A DNA stretch of 34,173 bases from NCBI GenBank assembly GCA_964554555.1, contig CAZKPI010000001.1:4178-38350 (forward strand). The letters are read 5' to 3'. This DNA comes from an uncultured bacterium. Lineage in GTDB: Bacteria; Muiribacteriota; Ozemobacteria; Ozemobacterales; Ozemobacteraceae. The notes beneath the pieces were generated by a model. The model searched no databases. It had not been told where the DNA came from and saw only the letters and a list, made by a program, of their open reading frames with translations. Below, piece by piece: positions 8,458-34,173 of this stretch (within the stretch, counting starts at the first letter, position 1; each line of letters starts with the position of its first letter). A program made the position numbers and the translations under genes.

Positions 8458-8465
8458 AGCACACC

Positions 8466-17004: not shown

Positions 17005-17007
17005 CGG

Positions 17008-18121: not shown

Positions 18122-19924
18122 TCATTCCGGGGAAATGGTGGCCTCTTTGTTGTCGGAACCCGTTTCCTGGGATGGCGACTCGTCCTTTTCGTCCTCCGGT
18201 TCGGAAGAATCCCCTTCCGAGGGAAGGCCCTTTTTGTACAGTTTATCCCAGATGTTGATCAAGGTGGCCCGGGTGGGCTTGTCCTCGGTGATATCAGGCA
18301 CGGTGTAGTCGGTTCCGCCTGTTTCCTTCATCAACTCGCGGGCGATCGCCAGCCAATCGGGCCCGTATTCGGCGGGAAGGTCGAACCCTGTGAACGCGGA
18401 GTTCTTCTTCAGAAGCTGGAAGGCATAGGCTTTCCGGTAGTCGCCCTTCGACTTCCCCCCGGCTGGGGAATCCAGCATGCCCTTCGGGAAGTAGACATAC
18501 CATCGCTTGATCACGGTCTCCCGGGAGGGCTTGTCCGCCGAGAAGGGTTGGTCGAATTCCTTCAGGGCCTCCCCCAGGGCCTTCCAGGCATCGACATCGG
18601 TGTCAGCCTTGGGCAGGGCGAACCCCAGTTCCTTCCAAACTCCGTTCTTCTCCTTGAATTCCTTCCAAACCTCCCCGAGGGTTCCCGAGGTCTTCGAGGC
18701 CGCCTCATCACCCTCATCTTCCTCGTCATCGTTCTCATCGGCGTCGTCCTCATCCGGCGACGACGCACCCGACCCGCATACGGCACAGGTGGAGCCCGCT
18801 TCACACCCCCACGGCTGGCGCTCCTTCAGCAGGTCCCGGAGATTTTCGGCCAACTTTTCGGCCAGAGGCAACAGATTGCCAAGATCGTCCTTCACCCCTT
18901 TCCTGGCAGACTCGGGTGCCTTTTCCAGGGCCTTCTGGAAATCCTTGTAGAGCTGGTCGATCTCCTGGAACTTCCCGGTCAGTCCTCCTGACTCCTCATC
19001 TCCGGATTTCCCGTCCTTTTTCCCTTTGTCATCCTTCCCCTTTTTCTCCTCTCCCTCTTTGTCCTTCTTCTTGTCTTTCTCGTCATCATCATCGGCTTTC
19101 CCGGAGAGGAAGTCCTTCAGCTCGTCGTTCTCGAACTTGTAGTCCTGGGTCCAATCCGATCCGGCTTTGGTTTTCTGGTCCTTGATCGCCTTTTCGAAGG
19201 TTTTGACGGCCTTTTCCAGGCCATTGGCGATTTCTTCCAGCCCGTCATGCGCCTTCTTCAGGTTCTCGGTCACCGCCTTGGTGGCCTCTCCGGGCTCCGG
19301 GTCCCCCTCTTTCTTTTCCTTCTCGGCCTTCTCGGCCTTCTCGATTTCCTCCTCGGCGGCATCCATCTTCTCGTCAGCTTTGTCCAGGGCTTCGCGAACA
19401 TCGTCGGCCCGGTCGATCTGCTTTTCCACCGCTTCTTTGAAGGCCGCAAACGGCCCGGAGCCCTTCTTGTAGAATTCCTCCTGGACTTTGGCAAGGTCCT
19501 CGAGAGTCTTCACCTTGCCTTGCGTGGAAGTCCCCCATTTGTCATACCAGCTCTCGCCCGCGTATCCCTTCAGGGTCGCTAAAGCCTTGTCGAACCGGCC
19601 GCAGAACTCATGGGCATGGATCAGGGCGTCCACGATCTCGCTCTTGTCGGGAAGCCCCTGGCTTCCCCAGACCAGACCATAGCTTTCGAGACGGCCGCTA
19701 TCAATCTTTCCCAGCATCGATTCGGCCATCTTGATGACGCACTCGTGATGTCTTTTTTCCCGGGCATCCTCGAGTTTGGCATACTCGTCGATCAACTCCT
19801 GCTTCTTGGCCTCCCGGTCCGAGTCGGAAACGGCGGCCTTCTCCCCGGTCGATGCTGTGGGCAGAAGCCAGCCAACCATCAAAACCGCCAGTACCACCAC
19901 CCACCGAATCCTGCTTCGTGCCAT
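18122..19924 (-). CDS. Secreted K/E/D-rich coiled-coil protein (600 aa from ATG 19924)
   Basis: AGGAGG lies 10 nt upstream of ATG 19924. The signal-like N-terminus is MARSRIRWVVVLAVLMVGWLLPTAST. A charged coiled-coil follows (EKQIDRADDVREALDKADEKMDAAEEEIEKAEKAEKEKKEG). There are highly charged tracts KADDDDEKDKKKDKEGEEKKGKDDKGKKDGK and SSPDEDDADENDDEEDEGDE. Architecture and position match 1955-3709. Confidence 0.8.
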   Translation of the reverse strand: MARSRIRWVVVLAVLMVGWLLPTASTGEKAAVSDSDREAKKQELIDEYAKLEDAREKRHHECVIKMAESMLGKIDSGRLESYGLVWGSQGLPDKSEIVDALIHAHEFCGRFDKALATLKGYAGESWYDKWGTSTQGKVKTLEDLAKVQEEFYKKGSGPFAAFKEAVEKQIDRADDVREALDKADEKMDAAEEEIEKAEKAEKEKKEGDPEPGEATKAVTENLKKAHDGLEEIANGLEKAVKTFEKAIKDQKTKAGSDWTQDYKFENDELKDFLSGKADDDDEKDKKKDKEGEEKKGKDDKGKKDGKSGDEESGGLTGKFQEIDQLYKDFQKALEKAPESARKGVKDDLGNLLPLAEKLAENLRDLLKERQPWGCEAGSTCAVCGSGASSPDEDDADENDDEEDEGDEAASKTSGTLGEVWKEFKEKNGVWKELGFALPKADTDVDAWKALGEALKEFDQPFSADKPSRETVIKRWYVYFPKGMLDSPAGGKSKGDYRKAYAFQLLKKNSAFTGFDLPAEYGPDWLAIARELMKETGGTDYTVPDITEDKPTRATLINIWDKLYKKGLPSEGDSSEPEDEKDESPSQETGSDNKEATISPE

Positions 19925-20016
19925 GTCCTTCTTTCCTCCTGTTTGGCCGGGTTTTTGTCTCCACAGTGGATTACCGGAAGCACCACCCATGAGGTTCAGC
20001 CGAATATTCCCCCGAC

Positions 20017-20757
20017 TCATTGACGGTTCAATTTCAGGCTCTCGAACGGCACATCCTTGAACAGGGATTCCCGCTCGAAGGGATCCACCGCCGCCGGAGG
20101 CGTCACAGGGGACCCGCGGCGGGCGATCACCCGCTGTCCTGCCCCCACCTCGACCGTCGTTCCCATCAGGTCAGTGAAGGATACTCTGCCCTCCTCCACG
20201 ACCAGGGTGGTGGAATCGGCATCGACCTCCAGCAGGAACATGGTGCCCAAAACCGCCGTCAACCCATGCGGAGTCTTGATCCTGGTTTCCTGCTGTTGTT
20301 TGTTGAACCGGTAGATCACCAGACCCTTTTCCTGGAGGGCGCGCGGAACTTTGGCATGCACCTCGAAATAGGCTTCTGCCTTCACCACCGCCTCGCTCCC
20401 GTCGGCAAACGCGATCCGGGCCCCACTGGCCCGGCCAGTCCGGACCCCGCCGCCCTCCTTCAAGGGTTGCTCCCCTTGCACCGAGGCGAACCCCTCCCCG
20501 GCCTTGAGACGGGCTTCGACTTCTCCCACCGGTTCCCGAACCTTGGCCAGGGGGGGGTCGTCGGCCCCGCCGCACCCCACCAGGGAGGCGAAGGTGACCA
20601 GAACGGCCAAGCCGACCAGGACTGCCCTCTTTTTCCACGGGGCTTCTTCATGAGCGGTCGCCTGCCACGGGGAGCCGGAGCCCTCCCGGAAAACGGGTCG
20701 ATCCTGCCGCCGCATGCCCCTGGTCCCAACGCATTTCAGGCCCTCCAAGTCCTGCAT
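20017..20757 (-). CDS. FecR-domain lipoprotein (246 aa)
   Basis: AGGAGG lies 8 nt upstream of ATG 20757. The lipobox is AVLVTFASLVG|CGG. FecR-type blocks are RIAFADGSEAVVKAEAYFEV and IKTPHGLTAVLGTMFLLEVDADSTTLVVEEGRVSF. Confidence 0.8.
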   Translation of the reverse strand: MQDLEGLKCVGTRGMRRQDRPVFREGSGSPWQATAHEEAPWKKRAVLVGLAVLVTFASLVGCGGADDPPLAKVREPVGEVEARLKAGEGFASVQGEQPLKEGGGVRTGRASGARIAFADGSEAVVKAEAYFEVHAKVPRALQEKGLVIYRFNKQQQETRIKTPHGLTAVLGTMFLLEVDADSTTLVVEEGRVSFTDLMGTTVEVGAGQRVIARRGSPVTPPAAVDPFERESLFKDVPFESLKLNRQ

Positions 20758-20760
20758 GCT

Positions 20761-22701
20761 TCAACCCTCCTGGGCGACAACCGCCCGTCGTTCGATGATC
20801 ATCAAGGTCACGTCGTCCACAAAGGGCCGTCCCTCGGTATGCGACCGGACGGTGCCAAGAGTTCGATCCCAGAGGTGGTCAAACGGTTCCTGCGGCCATG
20901 TCCCACAATACTCTTTCCATCGTTTGAACTCGAAAGGTTTATTCTCCCAATTCACCGCTTCCACGAAACCATCAGTATAGAACACCAGACGGTCACCCGG
21001 GTCGAGAGAAAAGCTCAGGGAATTGGGACGGAACAAGGGGGAGGACCCCACAGGGAATGCGGGCTGGGCCCTTTCTTCGATTTCTCCGGTTTGTTTCAGG
21101 AGAAAGGCGGGGAGGTGCCCGCCGTAAGCCAGTTCAACCTCCCCGGTGGCAAACTGGAGAGACCCCACCACGAGGGTAATCATCCGCTTCCGTCTGACCA
21201 CGTCAAGGATGACCTGGTTGAGGGTGGTCAGAAGGTCGGCCGGACGCAGGGCCCCCGCCTGCCGAAACTGGCTGACGATGGCTTTGACGATGGTGGTCAG
21301 CATCGCCGCGCCAAACCCATGTCCCGTGACGTCGCCGATCATGAAGACCAGGCGATCCTCACCCAGGGGGAAGAAGTCGAAGTAGTCCCCTCCGGCCTCT
21401 TCACAGGGCAGACAACGGCCGGCACAGATGAATCCTTTCGGGTGTTCGAAGGGCTTGGCCGGAAACAGCATCCGCTGGATCTCTCCGATGGCGCCGGCTT
21501 CTGCCCGCATGATCTGGGCCCGCACCAGATCGAGAAAGGCGATCACCATCGCGGCGGTCAGGGAGCCAAACAGCCAGGCCAGGATGAATGCCCCCATGGG
21601 CAGGTACCACCCCCAAGCCCACAAGGCCGCCCAGCCCGCCACGATCAGACCAGTCAGAGCGGCTCCACTGCGAAGCCAGGGGTGGGACCACGGCCGAAAA
21701 ACCAGACCCGCTCCCAGGAGCCATCCCATCAAGGTGGCCAGCAACCGCCCCCCCGCTCCCGTTCGCGGCTGAACCACCCAGCCTTTGAGCAGGGCGTCGA
21801 ACGAGGCCGCCAGAATCTCCACCCCGGCCACCACTCCAAACGGCATCCGATGCTCGTCATGCAGGATCGACGCACTGACCCCCACGAACACCACCCGATC
21901 CTGGAGAAAAGAGGGGGGAACCCGCTCTTCCAGCACGTCCATGGCGCTGACAACCGGAATCCCTCCCCCCCAGCGAGGCAAGGGCAGGAGACACTGAGAG
22001 ACCCCGTCCTCGTCAGGGGCCGGCAGATCCACGGCCACACCGAAATGCCTGGCCAGCTGGAGGACACAGCTTTCCTTGCCCAGCCGCTCGTCGCGCAGGG
22101 CGACGGAACGGGTCAGGCCATCGCTGTCGACCACCGCCCAGACGAACCCTTCCAGGAAGGCGGCGTCCCGAAACAGTTCCAGGCAGGGAATGTTGCGGAC
22201 ATCCAGGCCGCGCTCGGTCCAGAAGGTCTCGATGATCGAGATCAAACCCACCTTCCCCAGGCGCCGCAGGGTTCCGGCCAGGACTTGATCGTTTTTTCCT
22301 CCATCCCCATCCTGGGGGTTCTGCAGGAGGATGTCGAGGATGATGGCACGAGGATTATTCTGGGCAATAGCCTCCAGGAGCCGGGCAAACTCCGCTCGGG
22401 GCCAGGGCCATCGCAGGCCGATGGTTTCCAGGGCCTCGGTGTCGATGGCGACAATGACGAGCCGCGGGTCCGGAGCCTGATGAGGGGATAACAAGACCAG
22501 GAAAAGGTCGTAGACCCCCCGGTCGAGCCACCGGCTGGTTCCCGGGAGAAACCCCACCAGCCCCAGCAGGATCAGGATCAAAGCCACCAGGGCCAAGGAC
22601 CGGGCCCGCCCCAGCCGCGTAACCAGTTCGCCCTTGACCTGACGCAGACGCTCCCAGAAAGAGACAGGGGCTCCCCCGCCCTTCACTGCGAGATCGACCA
22701 T
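20761..22701 (-). CDS. CHASE2 sensor domain fused to a PP2C/SpoIIE-type serine phosphatase (RsbU-like), 646 aa
   Basis: An N-terminal TM is followed by CHASE2 blocks LVIVAIDTEALETIGLRWPWPRAEFARLLEAIAQNNPRAIILDILL and VVFVGVSASILHDEHRMPFGVVAGVEILAASFDALL. Three TM helices follow. The SpoIIE/PP2C blocks are GGDYFDFFPLGEDRLVFMIGDVTGHGFGAAMLT and LVFYTDGFVEA. Confidence 0.9.
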   Translation of the reverse strand: MVDLAVKGGGAPVSFWERLRQVKGELVTRLGRARSLALVALILILLGLVGFLPGTSRWLDRGVYDLFLVLLSPHQAPDPRLVIVAIDTEALETIGLRWPWPRAEFARLLEAIAQNNPRAIILDILLQNPQDGDGGKNDQVLAGTLRRLGKVGLISIIETFWTERGLDVRNIPCLELFRDAAFLEGFVWAVVDSDGLTRSVALRDERLGKESCVLQLARHFGVAVDLPAPDEDGVSQCLLPLPRWGGGIPVVSAMDVLEERVPPSFLQDRVVFVGVSASILHDEHRMPFGVVAGVEILAASFDALLKGWVVQPRTGAGGRLLATLMGWLLGAGLVFRPWSHPWLRSGAALTGLIVAGWAALWAWGWYLPMGAFILAWLFGSLTAAMVIAFLDLVRAQIMRAEAGAIGEIQRMLFPAKPFEHPKGFICAGRCLPCEEAGGDYFDFFPLGEDRLVFMIGDVTGHGFGAAMLTTIVKAIVSQFRQAGALRPADLLTTLNQVILDVVRRKRMITLVVGSLQFATGEVELAYGGHLPAFLLKQTGEIEERAQPAFPVGSSPLFRPNSLSFSLDPGDRLVFYTDGFVEAVNWENKPFEFKRWKEYCGTWPQEPFDHLWDRTLGTVRSHTEGRPFVDDVTLMIIERRAVVAQEG

Positions 22702-22729
22702 CCCAATCCCCTGTCACCCCTCCAGACCG

Positions 22730-23077
22730 TCAGTTCATCACCTGCCGAACAGCCGTGGCCCGATCCGGAGTCACCTGGGCATACATCGTCAAACCCACCG
22801 AGGAAAAACAGGCCATCACCGTGTTGGCGGCGGCACAGAAGCACAATTTGAGATCCGGCATCGACAAAGTCTTCGACACGATATCGATCAGCTCGCCCAG
22901 GGCGGCCGAACTGACCAGGGGACAGGCGGCCAGGTCGAACACCAGGCGCCGGGCGCCCTGGCCCACCAGATCCTCGACCCGAGCCCGGACCTGCTTACCC
23001 GCCTCGAGGTCGAGGTATCCCTGCAATCCCAGAATGACCACCTGCCCCTCATGCTGGACCGAAAGTGAGAATGCCAT
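22730..23077 (-). CDS. STAS-domain protein (anti-sigma-factor-antagonist type, SpoIIAA/RsbV-like), 115 aa
   Basis: AGGAGG lies 7 nt upstream of ATG 23077. The fold pattern VVILGLQGYLDLEAGKQVRARVEDLV...RRLVFDLAACPLVSSAALGELIDIV has the Ser-Ser at the position of the phosphorylatable Ser in SpoIIAA/RsbV. It is a paralogue of 25786-26133. Confidence 0.85.
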   Translation of the reverse strand: MAFSLSVQHEGQVVILGLQGYLDLEAGKQVRARVEDLVGQGARRLVFDLAACPLVSSAALGELIDIVSKTLSMPDLKLCFCAAANTVMACFSSVGLTMYAQVTPDRATAVRQVMN

Positions 23078-23119
23078 CTCGTTTCCTCCTGCCGGGGCCA
23101 GGCCAGGACCCCTGTCTGC

Positions 23120-25633
23120 TCATGGATCTCGCCCCTCGGAACGACCTGAGAGGGCTTGCATTTCCTTGACGGTATAGACCGGCCGGCCGCGACGGACCTG
23201 GCTGGTCTTCTCGACCCGGATGGCAACCCGATCATTGGGGCGACCGGCCACCCCCGCCGGGAGGGATACCTGGAAGATGTGGTGATCATCGGTCCGGAAC
23301 AGCCAGAATTGGTGCCGTTGGTCGAACCGCACCAGGGTCCCTTCCTGGAATCCCTCGCCCAGGCCTCCCTGACCAGGCCTGATCGAAACACCGGTCGGGC
23401 GGCCTCCCGCGGCGGGGCCCCCAGACCGGGAGGGACCCGCCGCATTGCCGGGAAGCAGGACGTTCGTCACGATCCAGACGGTGAACAGGACTGTTCCCAA
23501 TACCACCAGCCACATCTGGGCGTAGGAATCACCCAGCAGGCGGCTCATCACCCCTCCGCCGGGTTCGAAATGGATGGCCCGGACCTGGGCCAGCAGTAAT
23601 TCGATCTGTTCCCGTGACAGGAAGCGGGCCAGGGGACCCTCGCGGTCCCCCGAGGATCGGATCACCCGCAGATTCTGGGCCACCCGGTCAGCCAGCTTCT
23701 GCAGGAACTCCCGGCGGGGCCCGCCATCCTGCCCGGCCAATCCCTGCAGGGTCACCACGAGATCGGCCTCGGGGTTGACCAACAGAAGGTTGCCGAATCC
23801 TTCCAGGAGGGCGGGATCGTGGAGCTTCTGCAAAGCTTTCAGGACCAGCGGACGGGCCCGGGAAAACCGCATCTGGGAGAGGCCGGTCAGAGCGGCTCGC
23901 CGCGCTCGCGGATCCCTGGCATCGTCGATCCAGACGTTGATCCGTTGCAAGAAAGCGGCCTCGTCGAGTCTCCGGAAATGCCGAATGGCCTGGTTGACCA
24001 CCAGGGGCTGGTCGTGGAAGCAGAGCGTGGCGAGATGAGGAACCAGGATCCGGGAACCGAAGCGGGACAGAAGTTCCATGGCCGGAATAATCACCGCGGT
24101 CTCAGCGCTTTCGAGGGCCTTTTCCACCCACAACAACAAGCGTGAGTCACGTGAACGGGTCTTTTCCATCCAGACAGCGAGGGCATTCAACAGATCAGGA
24201 CGGGGCTGGGGCGGCAGAACGGCCACCAGATCCAGGGCACCCGCCCCGGCCGCCAGCCGCTTCAGGAACTCGGCGGCCGGATCGGTTTCCACCCGGTCCC
24301 CCGCCTTGCCGTCGGTGGCGGGCACTTCAGGGACGACAGTCTTCCCGGAAACCTGGGATGCCAGATCAGGCCGGGGACCAGTACCCGCGGCAGGCGGGGG
24401 AACCTTTTCCCGGGCGACCAGCGATGGATCAACGGGCGGTGCCTCCCCCCCCGAAGGTTTCGAGGGGGGCATGGACTCCCGCTCCGGCAGATCGGGAAGG
24501 GTTGGCCCGGCCGGCCCTTCTTCCACCGGCGGTGCCACCAGAGCCGCCCCATCCATCATGCCCGCGAGATGATCCCTCGCCCGCTGCAGGGCCCGTCCGA
24601 GAATGGCCCCGGGCGTGCCAGATTCGAGGCCGACCAGGGCCATCGACTCGGCCACCGCCTTCATGATCGGACGGCCTTCCGGGAAGTCTTCACCGCGCCG
24701 GCAAAACATCTCCGCCACCCGGTCCAGGAATTCGGGATCGGGATTGTTGCGAACCAGGTCGAGGACGATGGCCAGGACACGCCCGGGGATCAACCCTTCT
24801 TCCAGCATCATGAGCAGGATGGGAGCTATGTCTGGAAAGGGGAAGACCAGCATCAGGCTGACCGCCACCATCCGGACTTCCTCCCGGGGCGCCGCGGCCA
24901 TTTCTTTCAGCAAGCGGAGGCTTTCCGTGGGATAGAGACGCTGCAAGGTCCGCACCGCCATGATCCGGACGGAGAGGGACCGATGCAGGAGCAACCGGGG
25001 CAAGGAAGGCAATCCCACCGCGGGATCAAGGTCCAGCAGTCGGGGATAGGCCCGCAACAACACGGCCGGCGGGGCATTCTGCAGGAAAGCCTGGATCCGC
25101 GCGGCATGACCGTCGGGATCGATTTCTCCTGAGGCCCGAAACAGGGCACCCCAGGCGGCGGGACGCTCCTCACCCACCAGGCCGTCTCTCAGACACGATT
25201 CCTGAAACGCCCGCGGATAGCCGCGGAGGGTCCCGAGGAGGCGATCCCAGGCGGGTTCAGAGGCGGCGCGAAACCGGCTCAGCCAAGCCTGGGGAGTGAC
25301 ATCTTCGGAAGGGGCTTGCCGCTCAGCGCCCCCCTCCCCTCCGACTGCCGCCGCCGGGTGCGCCGCCCCGCTGGTCACCTGCGGTGCGGCAGAATCGCGG
25401 CGGGTTGGCACCCCGCCGAGAATCTGGGTCAGGACCAATCGGCACTCATCGTCGGTCTCTTGCCGAACATGGACCTCGAGACGGTCCCGGACTTCAGGAA
25501 CGCTCAGGAATCCCTGCAGTCGCAGGATGGCTCCCAGGCGGGCCAGAGGGGTTTCCGCCTCCAGTTCGAAGAGCAACCCCTTGACGATCTCGCCGAGATC
25601 CCCGGTTCGCGACTCTGCTGGAGGTTTCTCCAT
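23120..25633 (-). CDS. Large HEAT/ARM-like repeat protein with one C-proximal TM helix and a small extracytoplasmic C-terminal domain (837 aa from ATG 25633)
   Basis: HEAT-like repeats include LLHRSLSVRIMAVRTLQRLYPTESLRLLKEMAAAPREEVRMVAVSLMLVFP. The TM helix is MWLVVLGTVLFTVWIVTNVLL. The C-terminal domain is GTLVRFDQRHQFWLFRTDDHHIFQVSLP. It is collinear with its paralogue 26234-28522. The track ORF start at 25744 is a TTG; in-frame ATGs occur at 25678 and 25633, so the start is uncertain. Confidence 0.8.
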   Translation of the reverse strand: MEKPPAESRTGDLGEIVKGLLFELEAETPLARLGAILRLQGFLSVPEVRDRLEVHVRQETDDECRLVLTQILGGVPTRRDSAAPQVTSGAAHPAAAVGGEGGAERQAPSEDVTPQAWLSRFRAASEPAWDRLLGTLRGYPRAFQESCLRDGLVGEERPAAWGALFRASGEIDPDGHAARIQAFLQNAPPAVLLRAYPRLLDLDPAVGLPSLPRLLLHRSLSVRIMAVRTLQRLYPTESLRLLKEMAAAPREEVRMVAVSLMLVFPFPDIAPILLMMLEEGLIPGRVLAIVLDLVRNNPDPEFLDRVAEMFCRRGEDFPEGRPIMKAVAESMALVGLESGTPGAILGRALQRARDHLAGMMDGAALVAPPVEEGPAGPTLPDLPERESMPPSKPSGGEAPPVDPSLVAREKVPPPAAGTGPRPDLASQVSGKTVVPEVPATDGKAGDRVETDPAAEFLKRLAAGAGALDLVAVLPPQPRPDLLNALAVWMEKTRSRDSRLLLWVEKALESAETAVIIPAMELLSRFGSRILVPHLATLCFHDQPLVVNQAIRHFRRLDEAAFLQRINVWIDDARDPRARRAALTGLSQMRFSRARPLVLKALQKLHDPALLEGFGNLLLVNPEADLVVTLQGLAGQDGGPRREFLQKLADRVAQNLRVIRSSGDREGPLARFLSREQIELLLAQVRAIHFEPGGGVMSRLLGDSYAQMWLVVLGTVLFTVWIVTNVLLPGNAAGPSRSGGPAAGGRPTGVSIRPGQGGLGEGFQEGTLVRFDQRHQFWLFRTDDHHIFQVSLPAGVAGRPNDRVAIRVEKTSQVRRGRPVYTVKEMQALSGRSEGRDP

Positions 25634-25785
25634 TCCCGCTGGTTTCCCTTCGAGCCTTCTCCGGGGGTACCACCCCATCCAACCCCGCCAAACCCAGGGG
25701 CCGCGGTACCACCCTTCCCATGATATCCCATGGCCCAAGGGCAATCAACGCTGAGGAAGGGGGAAAAGGGGAAAGCCGGTCGGCC

Positions 25786-26133
25786 CTAAGTGCCAATCCG
25801 GGCGAGGGCTTCCGTTCGGTCGGCGGCGACGGAGGCATACAAAGCCAGTCCCACCGCCTGGAAGCAGGTGTTGACCGTCTCGCTCAGACCGCAGAAGCAG
25901 ATTTCCAGGGAAGGGTTGGTCAGGGTCTTGGACACGAGATCCACCAGGTCGCCCATCGCCCCGGAACTGACCAGGGGTGCATCGGCCAGATCAAAGACCA
26001 AGCCACGAACACCCTTGGCAAGCAGGTCTTCCACCTTCCCACGCAGGCCCCGGCTGGCTTCCTGATCGAGATAGCCATGGAAGACGATGATGGCGATCGA
26101 ACCATGCTCGAGGAAATCGGCCGTAAAGGCCAT
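25786..26133 (-). CDS. STAS-domain protein, second copy, 115 aa
   Basis: ATG 26133 is preceded by GGAGACGGAAGC. The sequence is MAFTADFLEHGSIAIIVFHGYLDQEASRGLRGKVEDLLAKGVRGLVFDLADAPLVSSGAMGDLVDLV, with the SSG motif conserved. It is the same length as 22730-23077 and clearly similar to it by eye. Confidence 0.85.
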   Translation of the reverse strand: MAFTADFLEHGSIAIIVFHGYLDQEASRGLRGKVEDLLAKGVRGLVFDLADAPLVSSGAMGDLVDLVSKTLTNPSLEICFCGLSETVNTCFQAVGLALYASVAADRTEALARIGT

Positions 26134-26233
26134 GCTTCCGTCTCCACCCAAGCCTGAAATCCGAGGGACCAAACGGATCCCTCGCCCATCAGGCTAATGG
26201 ATTTGCACCGGGATGGCAAGCCTGGCCTGCGGG

Positions 26234-28522
26234 TCAATACTCCCACAAAACCGCTGTCGACACGGGCACCCCCTGGAGGCGACGACCTGAATCGCGGACC
26301 ATCAAGACGATCGACTGTCCCTCCCGGACCTTGGCTGACAGGGGAATCATGACGGGAAAGGTCTCCCCTTCGGGGGTCCGGAAGAACCAGATGCGGGATT
26401 TGGCATCGTAGCTTACCAGCGTTCCCCGACGCTTGGCATCGCCGAATGGGGTACCCGCCACTTGGGGCAGGGACGGGGCAGGGACCGCACCACGGGTGTC
26501 CCGGGAACGAAGACCGCCCGGGGCCCATCCTCGCAGGCCCAACCACACGCCGATGCCTCCCAGGATCACGATCAGACCGATGGCCAGAACGCGCCCTCCC
26601 CCGAACAGGTCGAACCACCCTTCCCTCTGCTCAGGCCCCAGGTGAACCGAGCGGATTTCCTCCAGAAGATCGGTCACCTGGGCGGGAGACAACAGGCGGG
26701 TGACGCGGGCCAGGAAACCGTCACCGGAAGCGCCAATGACCGCCAGATTGGCCTCAACCCGCCCGGCCAGGGTTTCAAAATGGGGCCGCAGCCGGGAAGA
26801 CGCTCGCCGCGCCTGCCGGCGAAGGCGCATCACCGTCTCCCGATCCGGGTTCAACAGCAGGATGTTCCCGAAATTGGCGATCAATTCAGAATGGGTGGCA
26901 CCCTCCAGGACCTGCCAGACCAGGGGAGCCGCTTGGGAAAAGGGCATCTGGGCCAATCCAATGAGAGCCGCCCGGCGGGTGGTCCGGTCGCCGCACCCGC
27001 TGATCCAGATCCCGATCCGGCGGAGAAACCCGGCCGGATCCCCTTTCCGGAACTGGCGGATGGCCTGATTCATGACGAGAGGATCGGCATGCAGGCTCAA
27101 CACGGGAAGGTGGGGCAACAGGAGCCGGGGGGCCCAGGTCCCCAGCAACTCGATGGCGATGGAAACCACTCTGGGTTGCTCATCCTGTAGCCGGTCCACC
27201 AGCCAGGAAACAACCCCGGCGGGGGGCTGGGTCCCTTGAGGGAAGCGGCGGAAGAGGGCGAGGAGGTCCGCGGGAGTGGGAGAGGCCGGCAACGAGAGGG
27301 GGGTTCCATCGGGAGAAGGGGAGAGACCGCACTGCCCCTCGCCGCCGGGGCCGCCCTCAGAACCTGCGACGCGAGGGCCCCCAGCCGTGGACTCCATCCC
27401 CCCGCGAGAACAGACTCCGCCCTCAGACGGGTCAGATCCGGGTAGCGGAACCGGTGTTGCCGTCGAAGGGTCGGAGAGGTCCGTCAAGACTTCGGCCACG
27501 ATATCGACCGTCAAAAGACCGGTCAACCGCTGCCGGGCGGTCTCCAGAGCCCGGCCAAGCACCATCCCGGGAGTGCCGACCTCCCGTCGCACCATCACGA
27601 TCGACTCCGCCAGGGTCTTGAGCAAGGGCCAGAGCGTGGGGATCTCCCCTCCGCGACGGCAGTAGAGTTCCGCCAATCCGGCCAGGAGAGAGGGCTCGGG
27701 GTTGTTCCGAACCAGCTCGAGAACGATCGGGGCCCCGGAGGGAGGAATCCGGCCTTCCTCCAGGGCCGACAGCAAAGGGCCTTGCATGTGGGAGAGGGGA
27801 AAGGTCCCGAGCAAACCGACCGCCATGAGGCGGACCGCCTCTTCCGGCGAGGCCAGGAGCTCCCCCACCAGCCGGACCGCTTCTTCCGGAAACAACCGGT
27901 AAATCGTCCGGACCGTCAACACCCGGACCGGTTGGGAAGGATGCCGCAACAGCGCGGGAAGCTGTGGAACAACCAGCTCCGCATCGCCTTCCAGAAGGAT
28001 GGGAAGAAGCCTCAGGAGAGGCAGAGCGGTGGTTGCCCGGACGATCTTTTGCACCCGGGAATGGTGTTCCGCGGCCGGCCGATGCTGGCGTGAATAGGCC
28101 AGCAGTTGGGCAAGGACGGCGGGACGATGGTCCAGGGCCAACGACTGGTCAATGATGTCCCCCACTTCCCCACTCGGCAGGGTCGCGAGGAACCCGGCGA
28201 CCGACCCCGGCCCCAGGCGGGGAAGTTCCTGTAGCCATTGCCGCCGGCGGGTCTCCGCCCCGGCGCCCCATCCAGGACCGCCGAGGGTTCCCAGATCCGC
28301 GGGGAGGTGGTCGTCCACCTCCCCGCCCAGGAAATGGGCCAGCATCTCCCGACACTCGGGATCTTCCTCCCGGGTCAGGCGGTCACGAAACAGGGCGGCG
28401 GCCTGACCGGGAGGCAGGCAGGCTTGGATCGAGAGCATCGCCCCCATCCGCACCAGGGGGGCCGAGGCCTCCAGGTTTCGCTGAAGAGCCGTCTGTACAT
28501 CGAAACCGGAACGCGGCAACAT
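26234..28522 (-). CDS. Large HEAT/ARM-like repeat protein with a C-proximal TM helix and small external domain, second copy (762 aa)
   Basis: LLRHPSQPVRVLTVRTIYRLFPEEAVRLVGELLASPEEAVRLMAVGLLGTFP and IVLELVRNNPEPSLL match IVLDLVRNNPDPEFL in the paralogue. The TM helix is VLAIGLIVILGGIGVWLGL. The C-terminal domain is GTLVSYDAKSRIWFFRTPEGETFPVMIP. Confidence 0.8.
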   Translation of the reverse strand: MLPRSGFDVQTALQRNLEASAPLVRMGAMLSIQACLPPGQAAALFRDRLTREEDPECREMLAHFLGGEVDDHLPADLGTLGGPGWGAGAETRRRQWLQELPRLGPGSVAGFLATLPSGEVGDIIDQSLALDHRPAVLAQLLAYSRQHRPAAEHHSRVQKIVRATTALPLLRLLPILLEGDAELVVPQLPALLRHPSQPVRVLTVRTIYRLFPEEAVRLVGELLASPEEAVRLMAVGLLGTFPLSHMQGPLLSALEEGRIPPSGAPIVLELVRNNPEPSLLAGLAELYCRRGGEIPTLWPLLKTLAESIVMVRREVGTPGMVLGRALETARQRLTGLLTVDIVAEVLTDLSDPSTATPVPLPGSDPSEGGVCSRGGMESTAGGPRVAGSEGGPGGEGQCGLSPSPDGTPLSLPASPTPADLLALFRRFPQGTQPPAGVVSWLVDRLQDEQPRVVSIAIELLGTWAPRLLLPHLPVLSLHADPLVMNQAIRQFRKGDPAGFLRRIGIWISGCGDRTTRRAALIGLAQMPFSQAAPLVWQVLEGATHSELIANFGNILLLNPDRETVMRLRRQARRASSRLRPHFETLAGRVEANLAVIGASGDGFLARVTRLLSPAQVTDLLEEIRSVHLGPEQREGWFDLFGGGRVLAIGLIVILGGIGVWLGLRGWAPGGLRSRDTRGAVPAPSLPQVAGTPFGDAKRRGTLVSYDAKSRIWFFRTPEGETFPVMIPLSAKVREGQSIVLMVRDSGRRLQGVPVSTAVLWEY

Positions 28523-28534
28523 GAGGTTCAGAAA

Positions 28535-28572
28535 TCCGCCCCCTCCCTGGCGGACTCGAGGGAGGGGGCGGA
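28535..28572 (-). terminator. Strong intrinsic-terminator-like hairpin on the minus strand (14-bp perfect GC-rich stem followed by TTTCT)
   Basis: TCCGCCCCCTCCCT (28535-28548) pairs perfectly with AGGGAGGGGGCGGA (28559-28572), with a 10-nt loop. On the minus-strand transcript it starts 17 nt after the stop at 28590 and is followed by UUUCU. It ends only 12 nt before the ATG at 28522. Confidence 0.55.
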
Positions 28573-28589
28573 CGGCAAGCGATATCTCC

Positions 28590-30104
28590 TCACCGGGTGG
28601 AAACCCGCTCCGGCGGCACGGTAATGGTCCCGAACGGGGTGTTGCGGATGGTCACTCCGGCCTTGTTATCCGTGACCTGGGGAGTCCCCAGGTCCACTCC
28701 ATTATAGAACCAGTGGCCGGTTCGTCGGTCCTTGACCAGGTTTCCATTTTGGGAAGCCGATTGCGCCGCGCTCGGCGCGGGTGTCGATGTGGTCGGAGCC
28801 GGAGTCGGAGCCGGGGAGGGGGCCTCGGTGACCTTGGCCGGCGTGGTGTTGGAACCTTGCTGGCGAAGGGCGGCCACCAATCGTTCGATGGTTCCCGGGG
28901 GGAGATCCCGCTGGGGGAGGGTGACGCTTTCCCCCTTGAGAAGCTTGGCTTTTTGCTCTGGGGTCAGGCGGTCGATCAGATCCTGGATGTCCGCGTCGGA
29001 GGTGGTGATCGTCGCCTCGGTCGGCCCTGGACTCTCCGTGGAGGCCGGCGGGACGGTGGCCGCTGGTTCTTCCTGGTCTTCGGAGGGGGTGGAAACGGGC
29101 GCTTCGGTGGGAACTTGAGCGGTGGAGGGGGCCTGGGCGGTCGAAGGAACGGTGGATGGCTCCGGCGTCTCGACGCCCGCCTTGATAGCGTCTTCGTTCG
29201 GATCGATGCGGGCACCGTGATCTTCGTCGAACCCGTATTTGTTCGTATCCCCGCGCCGGTTGGTGGCCTCGACGTGCACCTTCTTCGACTCCTGGTCATG
29301 CGTCACCTTGGTGATCACGTAGCCACCGTCGAGCACGTCGCCCTCTTTCAGGTCCGTGGCTTTTCGGGTGGTGACGACGCCCTTGCCTCCCATCCCGCTG
29401 AGGATGTTGGTATTGGCGGCATTGGCGGCAGGGGCGACCACCACCGCTCCACCTGTTTCCCCCGAAGTGGTGCTGGGCTCTGGCGGATTGTACACCGTCG
29501 CCAGGATGGTATCGACCTTGGACTTGACATCCGTAGCGGTTCCCGGGGAGATCTCTTCGATCTTGTCGAGGATGTTCGGAGTGTCCTTGAAAAAGTCATT
29601 GGGAAGGAAGGTCCATTCACCCGGATTGTTCGCAAAGCTGGTAAACATCCTGGGGAGCTGGTTGTCCCAGAATTTGATCTCCTCCTCCAGGCTCTTCTTG
29701 GAGTCGATCCGGTTGAAAGTGACTCCTCCCGTGTGATCCCGCCAGGCCAGGAATCCCCGGGAAAAGTCGAGAGGGTTTCCTCGCATCGAGTCTTTCACCT
29801 TCCGAACCGCTTCTTTTTTCGCAGGATCTTTCCAGTCGTAATCCATCAACTGCAAGAGTGTGGCCAGATATACATACCGGCGGTACATCTCCTTCAGGTT
29901 GTTGGCATTTTCCCCCCGCTTTCCAAACAGGTCGTCAGAAGCGTTGTCCAGGGTCCGAAGGGTTTCCGAAAATCCAGTCTGGTGTTTGGCGATGGCGGCA
30001 TCCCCGAAGTTCTCGGCGGCCCACCCTTGGGAGACCGGCAGAAGAACCAAGGGCAATCCGATCAGAACGGTGACCACAACGAGGCTTCGAATAGTGATTC
30101 TCAT
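28590..30104 (-). CDS. Secreted hypothetical protein with T/P/S/A-rich linkers (504 aa from ATG 30104)
   Basis: AGGAGG lies 7 nt upstream of ATG 30104. The signal peptide is MRITIRSLVVVTVLIGLPLVLLPVSQGWA|AE. The N-terminal region is helical. The linkers are ETPEPSTVPSTAQAPSTAQVPTEAPVSTPSEDQEEPAATVPPASTESPGPTE and TEAPSPAPTPAPTTSTPAPSAAQ. I recognise no domain. Confidence 0.75.
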   Translation of the reverse strand: MRITIRSLVVVTVLIGLPLVLLPVSQGWAAENFGDAAIAKHQTGFSETLRTLDNASDDLFGKRGENANNLKEMYRRYVYLATLLQLMDYDWKDPAKKEAVRKVKDSMRGNPLDFSRGFLAWRDHTGGVTFNRIDSKKSLEEEIKFWDNQLPRMFTSFANNPGEWTFLPNDFFKDTPNILDKIEEISPGTATDVKSKVDTILATVYNPPEPSTTSGETGGAVVVAPAANAANTNILSGMGGKGVVTTRKATDLKEGDVLDGGYVITKVTHDQESKKVHVEATNRRGDTNKYGFDEDHGARIDPNEDAIKAGVETPEPSTVPSTAQAPSTAQVPTEAPVSTPSEDQEEPAATVPPASTESPGPTEATITTSDADIQDLIDRLTPEQKAKLLKGESVTLPQRDLPPGTIERLVAALRQQGSNTTPAKVTEAPSPAPTPAPTTSTPAPSAAQSASQNGNLVKDRRTGHWFYNGVDLGTPQVTDNKAGVTIRNTPFGTITVPPERVSTR

Positions 30105-30136
30105 ACAATTCCTCCTGAGACTTCGGAATTTCTGGT

Positions 30137-30832
30137 TCAACGGGAAGGCGGAACGAACGGCAGGTCCACCGGTTGCCACCGGACGGAGGACCGGGAGGAC
30201 GTGGGAAGGACCACCGACAAGGGAAAGGTCGCGGCGGGAACGGTGGGATCATCCGACCCCACAACCAGCGATATGTGGAGAAACTCCTGCCGGCAAGGCG
30301 CGGCCTGGGGGTGAACTCTTTGATCGCGAAAGAAAGGGAAGACCCGAAACATCTTGATGCGGTCACCTCCGAACTCCAACGGAGATTCGGTCACTCCATC
30401 GATCACCGCCTCCCGGATCACCCGCAGCCTCTCACCCTGGCGCCGCAGGGAATAGGTGACCGTGGCGGCTTCCCCGTGAAAACAGACCGATTCGGCAACC
30501 GATCCCGCATCGACTTCCCCGGGACGAAACACTCCGATCTCGCCTGGGGCAACCGCCTCCTGGCCGGCCCCCACGGTCACCGCCTGGCTCCGCAGGAGAT
30601 CCTGGTGGAGGGACCGCCAAAGACGTGCCGCGGCGGCAATCGCATCGAGCCGATCGACTCCATGGGCGGAACTGCGAACCAGACTGGAATACAATTTCTG
30701 GACCCCCATCAACAGCAAGGCGGCCAAGACCAGACTGACCAGGACTTCCACCAGCGTAAACCCACGGGAAAACCCCCGGAAGACGGAAAGGCAGGATCCG
30801 GCTCCACTCGGTTGCCTCACACCCCCGGTCAT
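30137..30832 (-). CDS. Pseudopilin (prepilin-type signal), GspJ-size class, cassette 3 (231 aa)
   Basis: GFSRG|FTLVEVLVSLVLAALLLMGVQKLY has E at +5. AHGVDRLDAIAAAARLWRSLHQDLLRS aligns with the 217- and 221-aa paralogues. The start overlaps the upstream stop (TAATG at 30832). Confidence 0.85.
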   Translation of the reverse strand: MTGGVRQPSGAGSCLSVFRGFSRGFTLVEVLVSLVLAALLLMGVQKLYSSLVRSSAHGVDRLDAIAAAARLWRSLHQDLLRSQAVTVGAGQEAVAPGEIGVFRPGEVDAGSVAESVCFHGEAATVTYSLRRQGERLRVIREAVIDGVTESPLEFGGDRIKMFRVFPFFRDQRVHPQAAPCRQEFLHISLVVGSDDPTVPAATFPLSVVLPTSSRSSVRWQPVDLPFVPPSR

Positions 30833-32040
30833 TACTGGAATCCCTCGAGCAAGGAGGCAGGTGAACTGCCAACCGTCGCTGGCCGCCCGGGAAGGATACG
30901 GGTCGGAGGATCCTCGGAGGGGGCTGATCCGGCAGATTCGGCCGGTTGAACGTTGTCAGAGGGTTCTGTCCACAAGGTGTCGAGAGGGTTGCCCATCCCG
31001 GGATCGACAGACGGTTCGGAAGGTTCGGCAGAACCAGGCTCTTCTGGCTCCCCGCCAGCAGAAGCGCTGGCTGTTTTCACGAGACGGCCAGGCTCCGGCG
31101 AGGTCTTGACCGCGGCCGTTGCCCCATCGACCCCGATGGCGTCCAAGGAGGCGGAAGGCGGAGTGGCAAGAGCGGCGGCCGGGGGACGGGGGACGGCAGG
31201 CCGGCGCCCAAGAGTGCCGGAAAGGCCGATGAGAAGGTGCTCGCCGGCGGCGACCTGGCGTTCCTCACCACGGGCGAGGGTCAGGACCCGGACCCGGCCC
31301 TCGAAGACTTCGACCAGGGTTCCCGTGGCTGGGGAAACCCCCACCTGGAAAACCGTGCCCATCGCGGCAATGGCTGTCTGCGGGGTTTCCAGCCGAAACG
31401 CGGTCCCGGGGCGGGTGATCCGGACCAGCATGGTTCCCGCGAGAAGATGGACGGCATCAGCGGCAAGCCGGAAGGTACCTTCCCACGCTTCGAGGACCAC
31501 CGCTTCCCCCAAGGCGAGCCGGGCATGCCCAGCCTGGAGGGTTCCCAGTCCGGCGGGAATGACCGCCATCCGGCCGAGATCTGCCCCGCCTGCGCTCACC
31601 GCCCCATCCAGGAGGCGAGCCACAATGGGAGGGGAGGAGGGAGACACCGGAGGGGCCACCGGGAGGGTGGGAGTGGCCGGCTCCGATGCAGGTTGGACCG
31701 TTTTGGAGGCCACCCCTGAGGACGGAAGTGACCGGAAGGGTCCCAGGGCCAGCCCAAGGCCCAGCATGGCGAGAACGGCCCCCCCAATCAGGATTGGCGC
31801 CCAGGGAACCCATGGAATGGGCGAGGCCGGAGAAGGAGCCGGGGTGGTGTTGGTGGGCAGGGAAACCGGAGGAACCGGGGGCAAGAGGTCGAGGGTGACC
31901 TCCACCCAGGTTCCCAGTTGGCCTTCGAGCCGGGCCACCTGCTCGAGACAGTCCCGGCATTCCGGGCATTCCCGGGCGTGTTGCCGGTCTTCCGGGGTGG
32001 GCCGGAGAGGGCGGTCCTGGGTGAGGAGCCGTTCTCTCAT
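30832..32040 (-). CDS. Anti-sigma-factor-like membrane protein: N-terminal zf-HC2 motif, one TM helix, periplasmic FecR-like domain (402 aa from ATG 32040)
   Basis: MRERLLTQDRPLRPTPEDRQHARECPECRDCLEQ contains H-x3-C-x2-C. The TM helix is WAPILIGGAVLAMLGLGLALG. The FecR-like block is FRLETPQTAIAAMGTVFQVGVSPATGTLVEVFEGRVRVL. The C-terminal tail is acidic and P/S-rich. The track ORF extends to 32190, so the start is uncertain (no clear SD at 32040). Confidence 0.7.
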   Translation of the reverse strand: MRERLLTQDRPLRPTPEDRQHARECPECRDCLEQVARLEGQLGTWVEVTLDLLPPVPPVSLPTNTTPAPSPASPIPWVPWAPILIGGAVLAMLGLGLALGPFRSLPSSGVASKTVQPASEPATPTLPVAPPVSPSSPPIVARLLDGAVSAGGADLGRMAVIPAGLGTLQAGHARLALGEAVVLEAWEGTFRLAADAVHLLAGTMLVRITRPGTAFRLETPQTAIAAMGTVFQVGVSPATGTLVEVFEGRVRVLTLARGEERQVAAGEHLLIGLSGTLGRRPAVPRPPAAALATPPSASLDAIGVDGATAAVKTSPEPGRLVKTASASAGGEPEEPGSAEPSEPSVDPGMGNPLDTLWTEPSDNVQPAESAGSAPSEDPPTRILPGRPATVGSSPASLLEGFQ

Positions 32041-32206
32041 CTGACCAACTCTGGGACAACTCACTCCTGCTTCCTGCCTTCCTGAAGGGACTCCGTAAAC
32101 TTTGGAGGCCAGCCCTCGCGGTTGGGTTCCAATTGCATGCCATAGGATTCTACCTGAACCGTGCCCAAAAGGTTGGGAGGAACCCTCCAAGAATTTTCCA
32201 TCGGGC

Positions 32207-32734
32207 TTAGCCCTCCCTGATCAGCATCCGGAATATCGCCCGGTGCTCGACCGGGTCCTGGGGGCTCAGCCGCCAACCGATGATCACCCGAACCCCCCAG
32301 ATGGTTCCCCCCTTGAGAACTTGCAGTCCCGAATCGTCAAGCTGAGCCCCGACCTCGATCCGGCGGGTGGTGAAGTGAGGGTCGAGGGGGGAGACGAACA
32401 AGGCCAGATCGGTTCCCGGAAGCCTGATTCCTTTGAGTTCGGGAGCCGTGGACACCCATTGGAGGTCAGCGCTCACCGCCTCATCCTCGAGCAGGAGTTT
32501 CAAAGTCCTCCCCGATGCAGCCAGGGCAGGAAGAAATGGACTCAGACGGCGCACCTGCGAGAGGATTTCCCACCCATATTGCCCGGCCATGACTTCGTAT
32601 CCTGAAGCTTTGCCCACCCTTTGAGAACCGGTCATCAGGTGGGCAAGAGGCAACAGAAGGAATGAAAGGATGATGATTCCCATCAGAATCTCGATCAGAC
32701 TCAACCCGATCCGGAAGCGAGCCCTCCCCATCAC
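32207..32734 (-). CDS. Pseudopilin (prepilin-type signal), GspI-size class, cassette 3 (about 174 aa)
   Basis: RFRIG|LSLIEILMGIIILSFLLLPLAHLM has E at +5. Position 32734 is a GTG and ATG 32731 follows immediately; either one overlaps the stop of the upstream large gene. It is a paralogue of the 193- and 194-aa pseudopilins. Confidence 0.8.
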   Translation of the reverse strand: MMGRARFRIGLSLIEILMGIIILSFLLLPLAHLMTGSQRVGKASGYEVMAGQYGWEILSQVRRLSPFLPALAASGRTLKLLLEDEAVSADLQWVSTAPELKGIRLPGTDLALFVSPLDPHFTTRRIEVGAQLDDSGLQVLKGGTIWGVRVIIGWRLSPQDPVEHRAIFRMLIREG

Positions 32735-34173
32735 TCGCCCGCTCCCGACAGCACGAGAGTCCGGTCTTCCGGGCTCACCAGGAAGGCCCGGCTTTCCTCA
32801 TAGGAAGGAGAACCGGGGTTGAACCGCGGATTGTATTCGATCGTTCCGCCTTTGGGAAACTCGGTCTGGGTCGTCGGCAAGGCCTGGCCGGGAAAGACCC
32901 CCAGACTGCGGACGGCCGCCCCTCCCAGAATATGGAAGGATGGACATCCGCCCCCCCCCAACAGCCTGCCGCCGGCTCCATCCACCGACGGGTGGAGGGC
33001 CACCAGATACGCCGCAACCGGCTGGTCCGTGGTCACCCGGACATTCCCCTCCAGGGCCGCGAGGGTCAGCAAATGGTCGGGTTCGGACCCTTCCCCTCCC
33101 CCGGAGATGGCCGCAGGCACGACCAAATCGCCGCGGTCGATCAGCAGGAGGAGATGGCGGTCTAGCTCGAGAGGCTTTGCCGGAAGCGCCAAAGGTTCCC
33201 GCCCCGCCCCCTTCCTCCGGATGAGATAAACCATCCCCCCCAACCGGGGTCGCATCATATCCGGATGATCGGCAAAGACCAGCTCATGGAAGGTTCGGGC
33301 TTCCTCTTCGGGGGTGGAGCAATCGGAAAGATCGACAACCGTTGAAACCCGCAGGGGTATGTTCCCGGGGTGTTGGGCATCAAATGACACCCGGGCCAAG
33401 TCTCCCTTGAAATAGACATCCTCCGGATCGGTCCCACCAGCCTTGAAACGTATCTCCACCCGTTCGTGGGAAACCAGCCCAGGGATGTCCTGATACCGCG
33501 TTTGAGAACCGGAAGGACCGAAATAGGGATCTCCATTCCCGGCAAAAGACGGAACCCCCACACGAGGGAGCGGATACCCCATGCTCTTCGTCCGGGAATA
33601 ATCCATGAACTCAAAGAACAGATTGAAGGCAACACCCTCGGACTTCCCCACCTGCGGTTGGTCCACAGCGTAGTTTCTCGGCAAGACCAGCCGGTGACTC
33701 TCGCTTTTTTTCAGGAAGAAGTCCCCATAGGTGAGCTTGGGTGAAGCAAGGAGGGGAAGATCATCCTGATACGGATCGGGAGGGAAAAGGGTGGCCCAGG
33801 CCTGGGCCGGAAGGGGATCGGACAAGGCATAGGCCTTGAGATAACCCGCCAAAACCGGCCCGAACACGACGGTCCGGCTCGGGTTCCGGTGGTCGCCATA
33901 GGGGAACAACCACGTGGAAGCGCACTTCCAGACGGGATCGGAAGGTTGCAGGCCTGCCCAAAGCTGGTTGGCCCGGGCATCGACAAAAAAACCCACATGT
34001 TGAATCAGGATCTGCAGGTTCAATCCTTTCCACGTCGTCGGAAAATGAGTGGGGTCCGCCAACTCTTCCAAGGGCACGATCGATTTCCCTTCCTTGTTGG
34101 CATCTGGCGGCAACGCAAAATGGAAATTCCCTCCCGTATCAGGGGAAGAGCGTCGTGTAGGGAAAGAGTGTAG
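32731..34173 (-). CDS. Large protein of the 821/846-aa family, cassette 3; 5' end lies beyond the window (C-terminal about 480 aa present)
   Basis: The track ORF begins at a TTG (34113), but I translated the frame upstream to the window edge. It stays open: LHSFPTRRSSPDTGGNFHFALPPDANK. This aligns with TGGNFHYKLPP and TGGQFHFHLPP about 300 aa into the paralogues. Further shared blocks are CASTWLFPYGDHRNPSRTVVFGPVLAGYLK, AFNLFFEFMDY and FPKGGTIEYNPRFNPGSPSY. Confidence 0.85.
   Translation of the reverse strand, partial: LHSFPTRRSSPDTGGNFHFALPPDANKEGKSIVPLEELADPTHFPTTWKGLNLQILIQHVGFFVDARANQLWAGLQPSDPVWKCASTWLFPYGDHRNPSRTVVFGPVLAGYLKAYALSDPLPAQAWATLFPPDPYQDDLPLLASPKLTYGDFFLKKSESHRLVLPRNYAVDQPQVGKSEGVAFNLFFEFMDYSRTKSMGYPLPRVGVPSFAGNGDPYFGPSGSQTRYQDIPGLVSHERVEIRFKAGGTDPEDVYFKGDLARVSFDAQHPGNIPLRVSTVVDLSDCSTPEEEARTFHELVFADHPDMMRPRLGGMVYLIRRKGAGREPLALPAKPLELDRHLLLLIDRGDLVVPAAISGGGEGSEPDHLLTLAALEGNVRVTTDQPVAAYLVALHPSVDGAGGRLLGGGGCPSFHILGGAAVRSLGVFPGQALPTTQTEFPKGGTIEYNPRFNPGSPSYEESRAFLVSPEDRTLVLSGAGE

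Follow-up and report, generated by a model that had tools for sequence, protein, structure and literature searches.

A gene for a membrane-bound anti-sigma factor that has probably lost its partner was identified in the window, a stretch of 34,173 nucleotides on contig CAZKPI010000001.1 of an uncultured bacterium. The gene is located on the minus strand in the last of three paralogous pseudopilin cassettes (cassette 3), between the genes encoding two prepilin-type proteins, pilin A and pilin B. In all 10 distinct loci of relatives, a gene encoding an extracytoplasmic function (ECF) sigma factor lies directly upstream of the anti-sigma gene, and the closest of these loci (L001) has the sigma/anti-sigma pair at exactly the place that the lone gene takes in cassette 3. 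Because the relatives keep the sigma gene upstream, the anti-sigma gene was probably orphaned by deletion of its cis-encoded sigma gene from an ancestral, cassette-linked pair and did not enter the cassette alone. A preliminary description of this DNA had regarded the gene as an insertion into the cassette, a view that does not agree with the pair in L001 and the apparent later loss of the sigma gene. The gene, its predicted domains and its two neighbours are as follows.

30832-32064, minus strand: orphan transmembrane anti-sigma factor, 410 amino acids from GTG 32064

31885-32064, minus strand: N-terminal three-helix domain, probably cytoplasmic (residues 1-60), with the motif C3-x25-H29-x3-C33-x2-C36

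31735-31800, minus strand: single membrane helix (residues 89-110; AlphaFold helix 89-107; hydrophobic window APILIGGAVLAMLGLGLAL)

31228-31623, minus strand: FecR-fold beta-sandwich, probably periplasmic (residues 148-279; AlphaFold predicted local distance difference test score, pLDDT, about 96)

30835-31197, minus strand: Pro/Ser/Glu-rich tail, predicted to be disordered (residues 290-410; pLDDT 40-52)

32207-32734, minus strand: pilin A of cassette 3, 175 amino acids, with a GTG start that overlaps the stop of the large gene (GTGA)

30137-30832, minus strand: pilin B of cassette 3, 231 amino acids

The anti-sigma gene starts at GTG 32064 (MSCPRVGQMRERLL...), behind the purine run GGAAGCAGGA. 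This start was chosen because it fits all homologues and restores the conserved Cys3; in an alignment of 21 homologues, the proteins have roughly ten N-terminal residues beyond a start at ATG 32040. The preliminary description had given the gene as 30832-32040, with a possible extension to 32190. The gene itself is upheld, but its start is neither ATG 32040 nor TTG 32190. The automatic gene call in the database (402 amino acids, ATG 32040) cuts off Cys3, the first conserved zinc ligand, which is a point for annotation. At the other end of the gene, the stop codon TAA shares its last A with the ATG of pilin B (TAATG). This junction and the ATGA overlaps of cassettes 1 and 2 had been described before and are exact in the sequence, and the separation of the two pilin genes of cassette 3 by one minus-strand gene was confirmed by blastp.

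With the start at GTG 32064, C3 is included and the motif reads C-x25-H-x3-C-x2-C. This spacing is typical of zinc-binding anti-sigma factors (ZAS), in which the fourth zinc ligand (Cys or His) lies 23-26 residues before the His; in the window protein, C3 lies 25 residues before H29. The residues H29, C33 and C36 are invariant across 22 aligned family members, and at least 90% of these share C3. An AlphaFold model based on the family alignment contains N-terminal helices at residues 5-15, 24-32 and 34-60, with a pLDDT of about 91. When the first 70 residues were compared as a profile with the PDB, the best match was RslA (3hug_B), at a borderline E of 0.016, and the next anti-sigma factor was DdvA (E 0.13).

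The beta-sandwich behind the membrane helix is matched by the Pfam family FecR (PF04773) with 29.5-29.8 bits (gathering score 24), over profile positions 42-97, which is the second half of the profile only. PF04773 also matches 20 of the 22 homologues, and it is the only Pfam match in the window protein, even at E<=10. By Foldseek, the beta-sandwich corresponds to the signalling domain of PupR (6ovk_R; E 9.6e-6, root-mean-square deviation 2.3 A over 121 columns) and also to the putative anti-sigma factor BDI_1681 (4m0h/4m0n), and a profile search of the PDB matched 4m0n with an E of 3.6e-7. The FecR-like domain and the single membrane helix that had been proposed earlier are thus both supported, and the periplasmic side of the domain is the likely one. 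FecR-fold domains are periplasmic. Because of this, and because the protein has no signal peptide and its heavily charged N-terminal domain carries the Cys/His motif, the N-terminus is inferred to be cytoplasmic. The C-terminal tail is longer than that of most homologues and aligns poorly with the family.

The conclusion that the protein is a single-pass membrane anti-sigma factor is well supported. It is based on the Cys/His motif, the single membrane helix and the FecR fold that matches PupR, and above all on the ECF sigma genes upstream in the relatives. In this respect, the transmembrane anti-sigma architecture of the preliminary description agrees with the evidence.

The family is rare: when 1.84 billion representatives were searched exhaustively with HMMER, 121 relatives were obtained. 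About 20 of them are full length at 21-36% identity and align with the query over its residues 1-300. From 5.8 billion proteins, a word-indexed search retrieved no protein other than that of the window (402 amino acids from ATG 32040), and a look-up of the genomic context of the exact protein gave no record. A genome scan for further loci found the L001 contig again and nothing else, and a metagenome scan found a duplicate of L004 and three fragments that match over the FecR domain only. One member of the family, MBF0499408.1, is labelled as a FecR domain-containing protein of Candidatus Riflebacteria. In three homologues (P0004, P0023 and P0087; loci L005/L006), the FecR-fold domain is followed by ankyrin repeats at the C-terminus, on the predicted periplasmic side.

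The sigma genes of the relatives are complete in L001, L004, L007, L008, L009, L011, L017 and L018 and partial in L005 and L019, which are short contigs. The truncated sigma C-termini of L005 and L019 are recognized by the family sigma profile with E values of 1e-30 and 7e-27, respectively. The relatives' proteins are genuine ECF sigma factors (TIGR02937, about 70-91 bits), and the models closest to them are those of SigW, SigY and SigM, not FecI. In most loci, the stop of the sigma gene and the start of the anti-sigma gene overlap in ATGA or GTGA, the latter being found in L018.

Six loci have enough flanking sequence to show the surroundings of the pair, and in each of them it belongs to, or adjoins, a homologous pseudopilin cassette with a large protein and two small prepilin-like proteins. 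In L001, L004, L007, L009 and L011, genes homologous to pilin A and pilin B occur on the flanks of the pair (phmmer), and in L017 N_methyl pilins are arranged in the same way. The pair follows two small prepilin-like genes, or lies a few genes downstream of them, in L004, L007, L009, L011, L017 and L018. L001 is orthologous to cassette 3 and comes closest to it among the relatives; its gene order is large gene, pilin A, sigma, anti-sigma, pilin B, a 557-amino-acid protein, a 170-amino-acid protein and a HEAT protein (38% identical to its counterpart). Judged from these gene orders, the sigma/anti-sigma pair appears to be an ancestral companion of the pseudopilin cassette of the cassette-3 type. 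The orthologous cassette thus has the anti-sigma gene at the same place, but with a sigma gene before it.

The interval from pilin A to the GTG of the anti-sigma gene in the window is 142 bp long (32065-32206). The same interval in L001 consists of 61 bp plus a sigma gene of 531 bp, and the window is therefore short by about 450 bp. The absence of an ECF sigma gene from the window, as noted in the preliminary description, was confirmed by Pfam scans of all large open reading frames, by tblastn with a relative's sigma factor, which found nothing in the window, and by a hidden Markov model (HMM) of six sigma factors, whose best match in the six-frame translation of the window has an E of 0.36 and lies in an unrelated place. 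Three features were identified in or at the edge of this gap.

32192-32201, minus strand: 10-mer ATGGAAAATT, just after the pilin A stop, from a DNA alignment of the sigma-upstream regions

32149-32176, minus strand: ECF-type promoter-like motif CCAACC-N17-GTAGA, at the site of the promoter before the sigma gene in relatives

32061-32138, minus strand: open reading frame of 25 codons, MQLEPNREGWPPKFTESLQEGRKQE*, a probable sigma remnant, whose TGA overlaps the GTG of the anti-sigma gene (GTGA)

The 10-mer ATGGAAAATT is also found at positions 3013-3022 of L001, though the proteins of the window and L001 are just 36-46% identical. The L001 counterpart of the promoter-like motif is TCAACC-N17-GTAAT, and a sequence of the form TCAACC-N16/17-GTnAT precedes the sigma gene in L001, L007, L008 and L011. 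ECF promoters such as those of SigW have an AAC-containing -35 element and a GT-containing -10 element. A second promoter-like motif in the window, TCAACC-N17-GTCGA (14528-14555, minus strand), is located inside the 3' end of the large gene of cassette 2, about 60 nt before the start of its pilin A, and is either a chance match or an internal promoter.

The C-terminus of the 25-codon reading frame, KFTESLQEGRK, is similar to the sigma C-termini KLLELLQEKRK and RLMEILEEGKE. Among the 57,914 11-mers in the six-frame translation of the window, only nine score equally well (rank fraction 1.6e-4). The gap 32065-32206 contains no sigma-70 promoter, no terminator and no unusually stable RNA fold (z = 0.89). 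Since neither a sigma-70 promoter nor a terminator is present, the anti-sigma gene probably shares a transcript with pilin A. Its transcription with both pilin genes, and its translation, probably continue today.

The sigma-less junction was also recovered from other samples. A Logan contig of run X2 (668 bp, 32030-32697) and one of run X5, from a different study (233 bp, 32005-32237), both span the junction without a difference. No joints or loose ends were found at the junction, and no strain variant containing the sigma gene was found among the contigs of six runs. Run X5 is a soil metagenome, and its contig is 100% identical to the hot-spring sequence, which points to either a widespread organism or carry-over between datasets. 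Strain variants from runs X3 and X4 differ by three synonymous changes and one non-synonymous change in the FecR domain, and by one synonymous and six non-synonymous changes in the linkers.

In the mechanism proposed for the family, the N-terminal zinc-type domain would hold the sigma factor at the membrane, and the outer FecR-fold domain would take up a signal tied to the filament subunits of the cassette. The freed sigma factor would then fire TCAACC-N17-GTnAT, the promoter in front of the sigma gene, and with it the cassette genes downstream, which in the arrangement of L001 and the window would include pilin B. In the window, the sigma frame appears to be gone, with the promoter motif and the 25-codon reading frame with its GTGA overlap left behind, and the loop would be broken in cis. 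The preliminary description had suggested feedback between assembly of the cassette and transcription. Such a loop is not intact here in cis; with the cognate sigma gene deleted, any signalling at this locus would need a sigma factor encoded elsewhere. The present role of the protein may be to restrain a related sigma factor elsewhere in trans, or it may be a recently stranded relic, the trans role being slightly favoured. In a more specific proposal, which is quite unlikely, the FecR-fold sensor reads the assembly state of the pseudopilus tip instead of a TonB-dependent receptor, and the sigma-less anti-sigma factor acts as a trans brake by which cassette 3 gates the other cassettes (tip-complex exclusion).

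Several observations weigh against the anti-sigma reading or against the loss of the sigma gene in cis. The zf-HC2 N-terminus of the preliminary description is upheld as a motif (H-x3-C-x2-C), but not as a profile match: Pfam zf-HC2 (PF13490) does not match the window protein even at E<=10 and matches just one of the 22 homologues (E=0.15). NCBIfam anti-sigma models do not match the window protein at E<=10 either. The top Foldseek match of the N-terminal domain alone is RsiW (5wuq_D), with an E of 8.6 and a template modelling score of 0.40, which is not significant. The charges flanking the membrane helix (35 versus 46 Lys+Arg, family-wide) leave the topology ambiguous. The promoter motif in the gap is degenerate; a stricter pattern matches the window once, at 32149-32176, and 0.34 such matches are expected per window by chance. 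Among the relatives, L004 has TCAACC with a poor -10 element, and in L009 no forward-oriented copy of the motif is present. The putative remnant is short, and its similarity lies in 11 residues; it is missed by the full sigma HMM (peptide E about 400) and gave a signal only in the anchored C-terminal comparison. It is therefore supportive of a former sigma gene, not conclusive. The sigma gene may also have been relocated elsewhere in the genome, of which the contig is the visible part. The strain variants give a weak hint of continuing selection on the anti-sigma gene, the evidence for which is thin.

Four other explanations of the lone gene were considered. An intact anti-sigma factor could have been inserted in the cassette and could work with an unlinked ECF sigma factor encoded elsewhere, in a live feedback between assembly and transcription. 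The reading frame is indeed intact with every conserved family position kept, the TAATG coupling to pilin B persists, the strain changes in the FecR domain are mostly synonymous, and a retained ECF-type promoter motif would be sensible if a related sigma factor still used it. However, 10 of 10 relatives keep the sigma gene in cis, so that an unlinked partner is not the normal state of the family; L001 indicates an ancestral pair at this site, and no candidate sigma gene is visible on the contig. According to the ECF classification paper (PMC7826278), ECF anti-sigma factors are usually specific to their own group, which is a further point against an unlinked partner. This explanation is rather unlikely. 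A decaying relic is about equally doubtful. It would have lost its sigma factor recently and its function with it, and would persist because little time has passed or because of its translational coupling to pilin B. The cognate sigma gene is gone, the window alone lacks it among 11 loci, close relatives that could show conservation of this state were not found, the tail is unusually long and disordered, and the substitutions in the linkers are mostly non-synonymous. Against decay, the frame of 410 codons is open with all conserved residues present, the substitutions in the folded domain are few and mostly synonymous, and the junction is identical in samples of different studies.

A role unconnected with sigma factors is highly unlikely. 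The FecR-fold domain would then be a periplasmic accessory of the pseudopilus tip that binds, for example, pilin B or the 529-amino-acid protein encoded downstream of it. FecR domains do exist outside anti-sigma factors, as in the lipoprotein-like product of 20017-20757 in the window, and the gene is embedded among filament subunits, but a purely periplasmic role leaves unexplained the N-terminal Cys/His domain, which is the best-conserved part of the protein and always occurs with a sigma gene. Least probable, and very unlikely, is an assembly artefact, in which a real sigma gene collapsed out of the contig. The contig has about 4x coverage in a metagenome and ends in an adapter; the contigs of X2 and X5, which were built independently, nevertheless cross the junction exactly, with no joints or loose ends. 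Orphaning by deletion of the cis sigma gene thus remains the probable origin of the arrangement in cassette 3.

The GC content of the window is 63%, and nearly all genes from 10 kb on are carried by the minus strand. All-versus-all blastp of the main open reading frames identified the three paralogous cassettes, each composed of a large protein, pilin A and pilin B. The remaining cassette features and the contig end are as follows.

4486-6948, 6921-7499 and 7499-8149, plus strand: large gene, pilin A and pilin B of cassette 1, respectively (blastp)

14467-17004, 13886-14467 and 13224-13886, minus strand: large gene, pilin A and pilin B of cassette 2, respectively, followed by further genes (blastp)

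32731-34113, minus strand: 3' part of the large gene of cassette 3, GspK-like by inference, truncated at the contig end

34144-34173, no strand: Illumina adapter, not biological, at the contig end (letters ACACTCTTTCCCTACACGACGCTCTTCC)

28590-30179, minus strand: 529-amino-acid protein with a signal-peptide-like start, downstream of pilin B

The word depth of the adapter is about 16,000-32,000 in four unrelated public runs, around a value of about 23,000. Because the last 30 bases are an Illumina adapter, the window stops at the contig end, the large gene of cassette 3 is truncated (it lacks its first ~320 codons), and the region upstream is out of view. The contig comes from a low-coverage metagenome assembly, and the sequence of the window is present in hot-spring metagenomes. 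The large protein of cassette 3 is 31% identical to residues 319-845 of the large protein of cassette 2 (E 1.5e-42), aligns with residues 282-772 of the L001 large protein and has no Pfam match. The pilin A of cassette 3 is paralogous to those of cassettes 1 and 2 and 46% identical to that of L001 (E 1e-44); its N_methyl score of 14.6 bits is under the threshold. The pilin B is likewise paralogous to those of cassettes 1 and 2, shows 37% identity to that of L001, and is recognized by N_methyl (28.3 bits; threshold 21.2) and TIGR02532 (23.9 bits). The 529-amino-acid protein has the same operon position as the 557-amino-acid protein of L001, without detectable sequence similarity to it, and has no Pfam or NCBIfam match.

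Other genes are located around the cassettes. Two paralogous HEAT-repeat proteins (34% identical) encoded at 23120-25744 and 26234-28522 on the minus strand adjoin cassette 3. They may be part of the cassette system, because HEAT proteins flank the cassette in L001, L011 and L017 too. A second FecR-domain protein is encoded at 20017-20757 on the minus strand. This protein has 246 amino acids and a lipobox-like LVGCGG; the FecR domains of this protein and the anti-sigma factor share 32% identity. Its gene is directly downstream of genes encoding a CHASE2-SpoIIE phosphatase (20761-22701) and a STAS protein (22730-23077), also on the minus strand, and the three genes (20017-23077) look like a partner-switching module. 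SpoIIE phosphatases flank the cassette in L007 and L017 as well. The gene at 8430-9866 (plus strand), after cassette 1, encodes a clostripain-family (C11) peptidase (156.9 bits). The genes at 226-1674 and 10000-11598 (minus strand) encode paralogous large proteins that are 25% identical over about 440 amino acids; the first has a prepilin N-terminal motif, and both are candidates for additional filament subunits.

In bacteria, envelope signals are most commonly carried to transcription by ECF sigma/anti-sigma pairs. The family described here fuses a zinc-motif anti-sigma domain to a FecR-fold sensor and is kept beside pseudopilin genes in Riflebacteria-like uncultured bacteria. This conservation points to filament or secretion tip complexes that, in some cases, signal their state back to the promoter that drives them. 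The copy in the window amounts to a natural sigma deletion and is useful for asking what an anti-sigma factor without a partner does. A literature search on ECF or anti-sigma factors with pseudopilins found no described pair built into a pseudopilin cassette, and nothing relevant emerged from searches on zf-HC2 with FecR or on Riflebacteria with pilins. There is no mention of pilins in the main text of the ECF classification paper (PMC7826278).

The window protein shares several properties with ZAS, such as RsiW of the RsiW/SigW pair of Bacillus subtilis, RslA of the RslA/SigL pair of Mycobacterium tuberculosis, RsrA and ChrR. These include the H-x3-C-x2-C motif, a fourth ligand ~25 residues upstream and a small N-terminal domain predicted to be helical, and the genes of the relatives are coupled to ECF sigma genes nearest to the SigW, SigY and SigM models. 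RsiW and RslA also have a single membrane helix, but neither has the outer FecR fold. The window protein further differs from ZAS in that it lacks a Pfam zf-HC2 match, has just three predicted helices in about 60 residues and has no sigma partner in cis.

The single-pass layout resembles that of FecR and PupR in systems of the FecI-FecR-FecA type, and the beta-sandwich superposes on part of the C-terminal signalling domain of PupR. However, just 121 columns of the 213-residue PupR domain (about half) align, and the rest is replaced in the window protein by a disordered tail. The FecR-type N-terminal domain and the C-terminal STN-binding subdomain are both missing, and neither a TonB-dependent transducer nor a FecI-type sigma gene is found nearby, in the window or in the loci of the relatives. 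The protein is therefore not a strict member of the FecR family.

The cassettes themselves weakly resemble the minor-pseudopilin tips of type II secretion systems (GspK-GspI-GspJ) and type IV pili (PilVWX/FimU), in that a large protein, whose N-terminus is hydrophobic as in GspK, is followed by two prepilin-type proteins. The presence of the cassette in several paralogous copies is another point of resemblance. The cassette pilins match GspI/PilV and GspJ models weakly, in all cases below the family thresholds. The large protein, with 700-850 amino acids and no Pfam family, is far bigger than GspK. A further difference is the ECF sigma/anti-sigma pair built into the cassette, for which the literature searches on this association gave no described counterpart.

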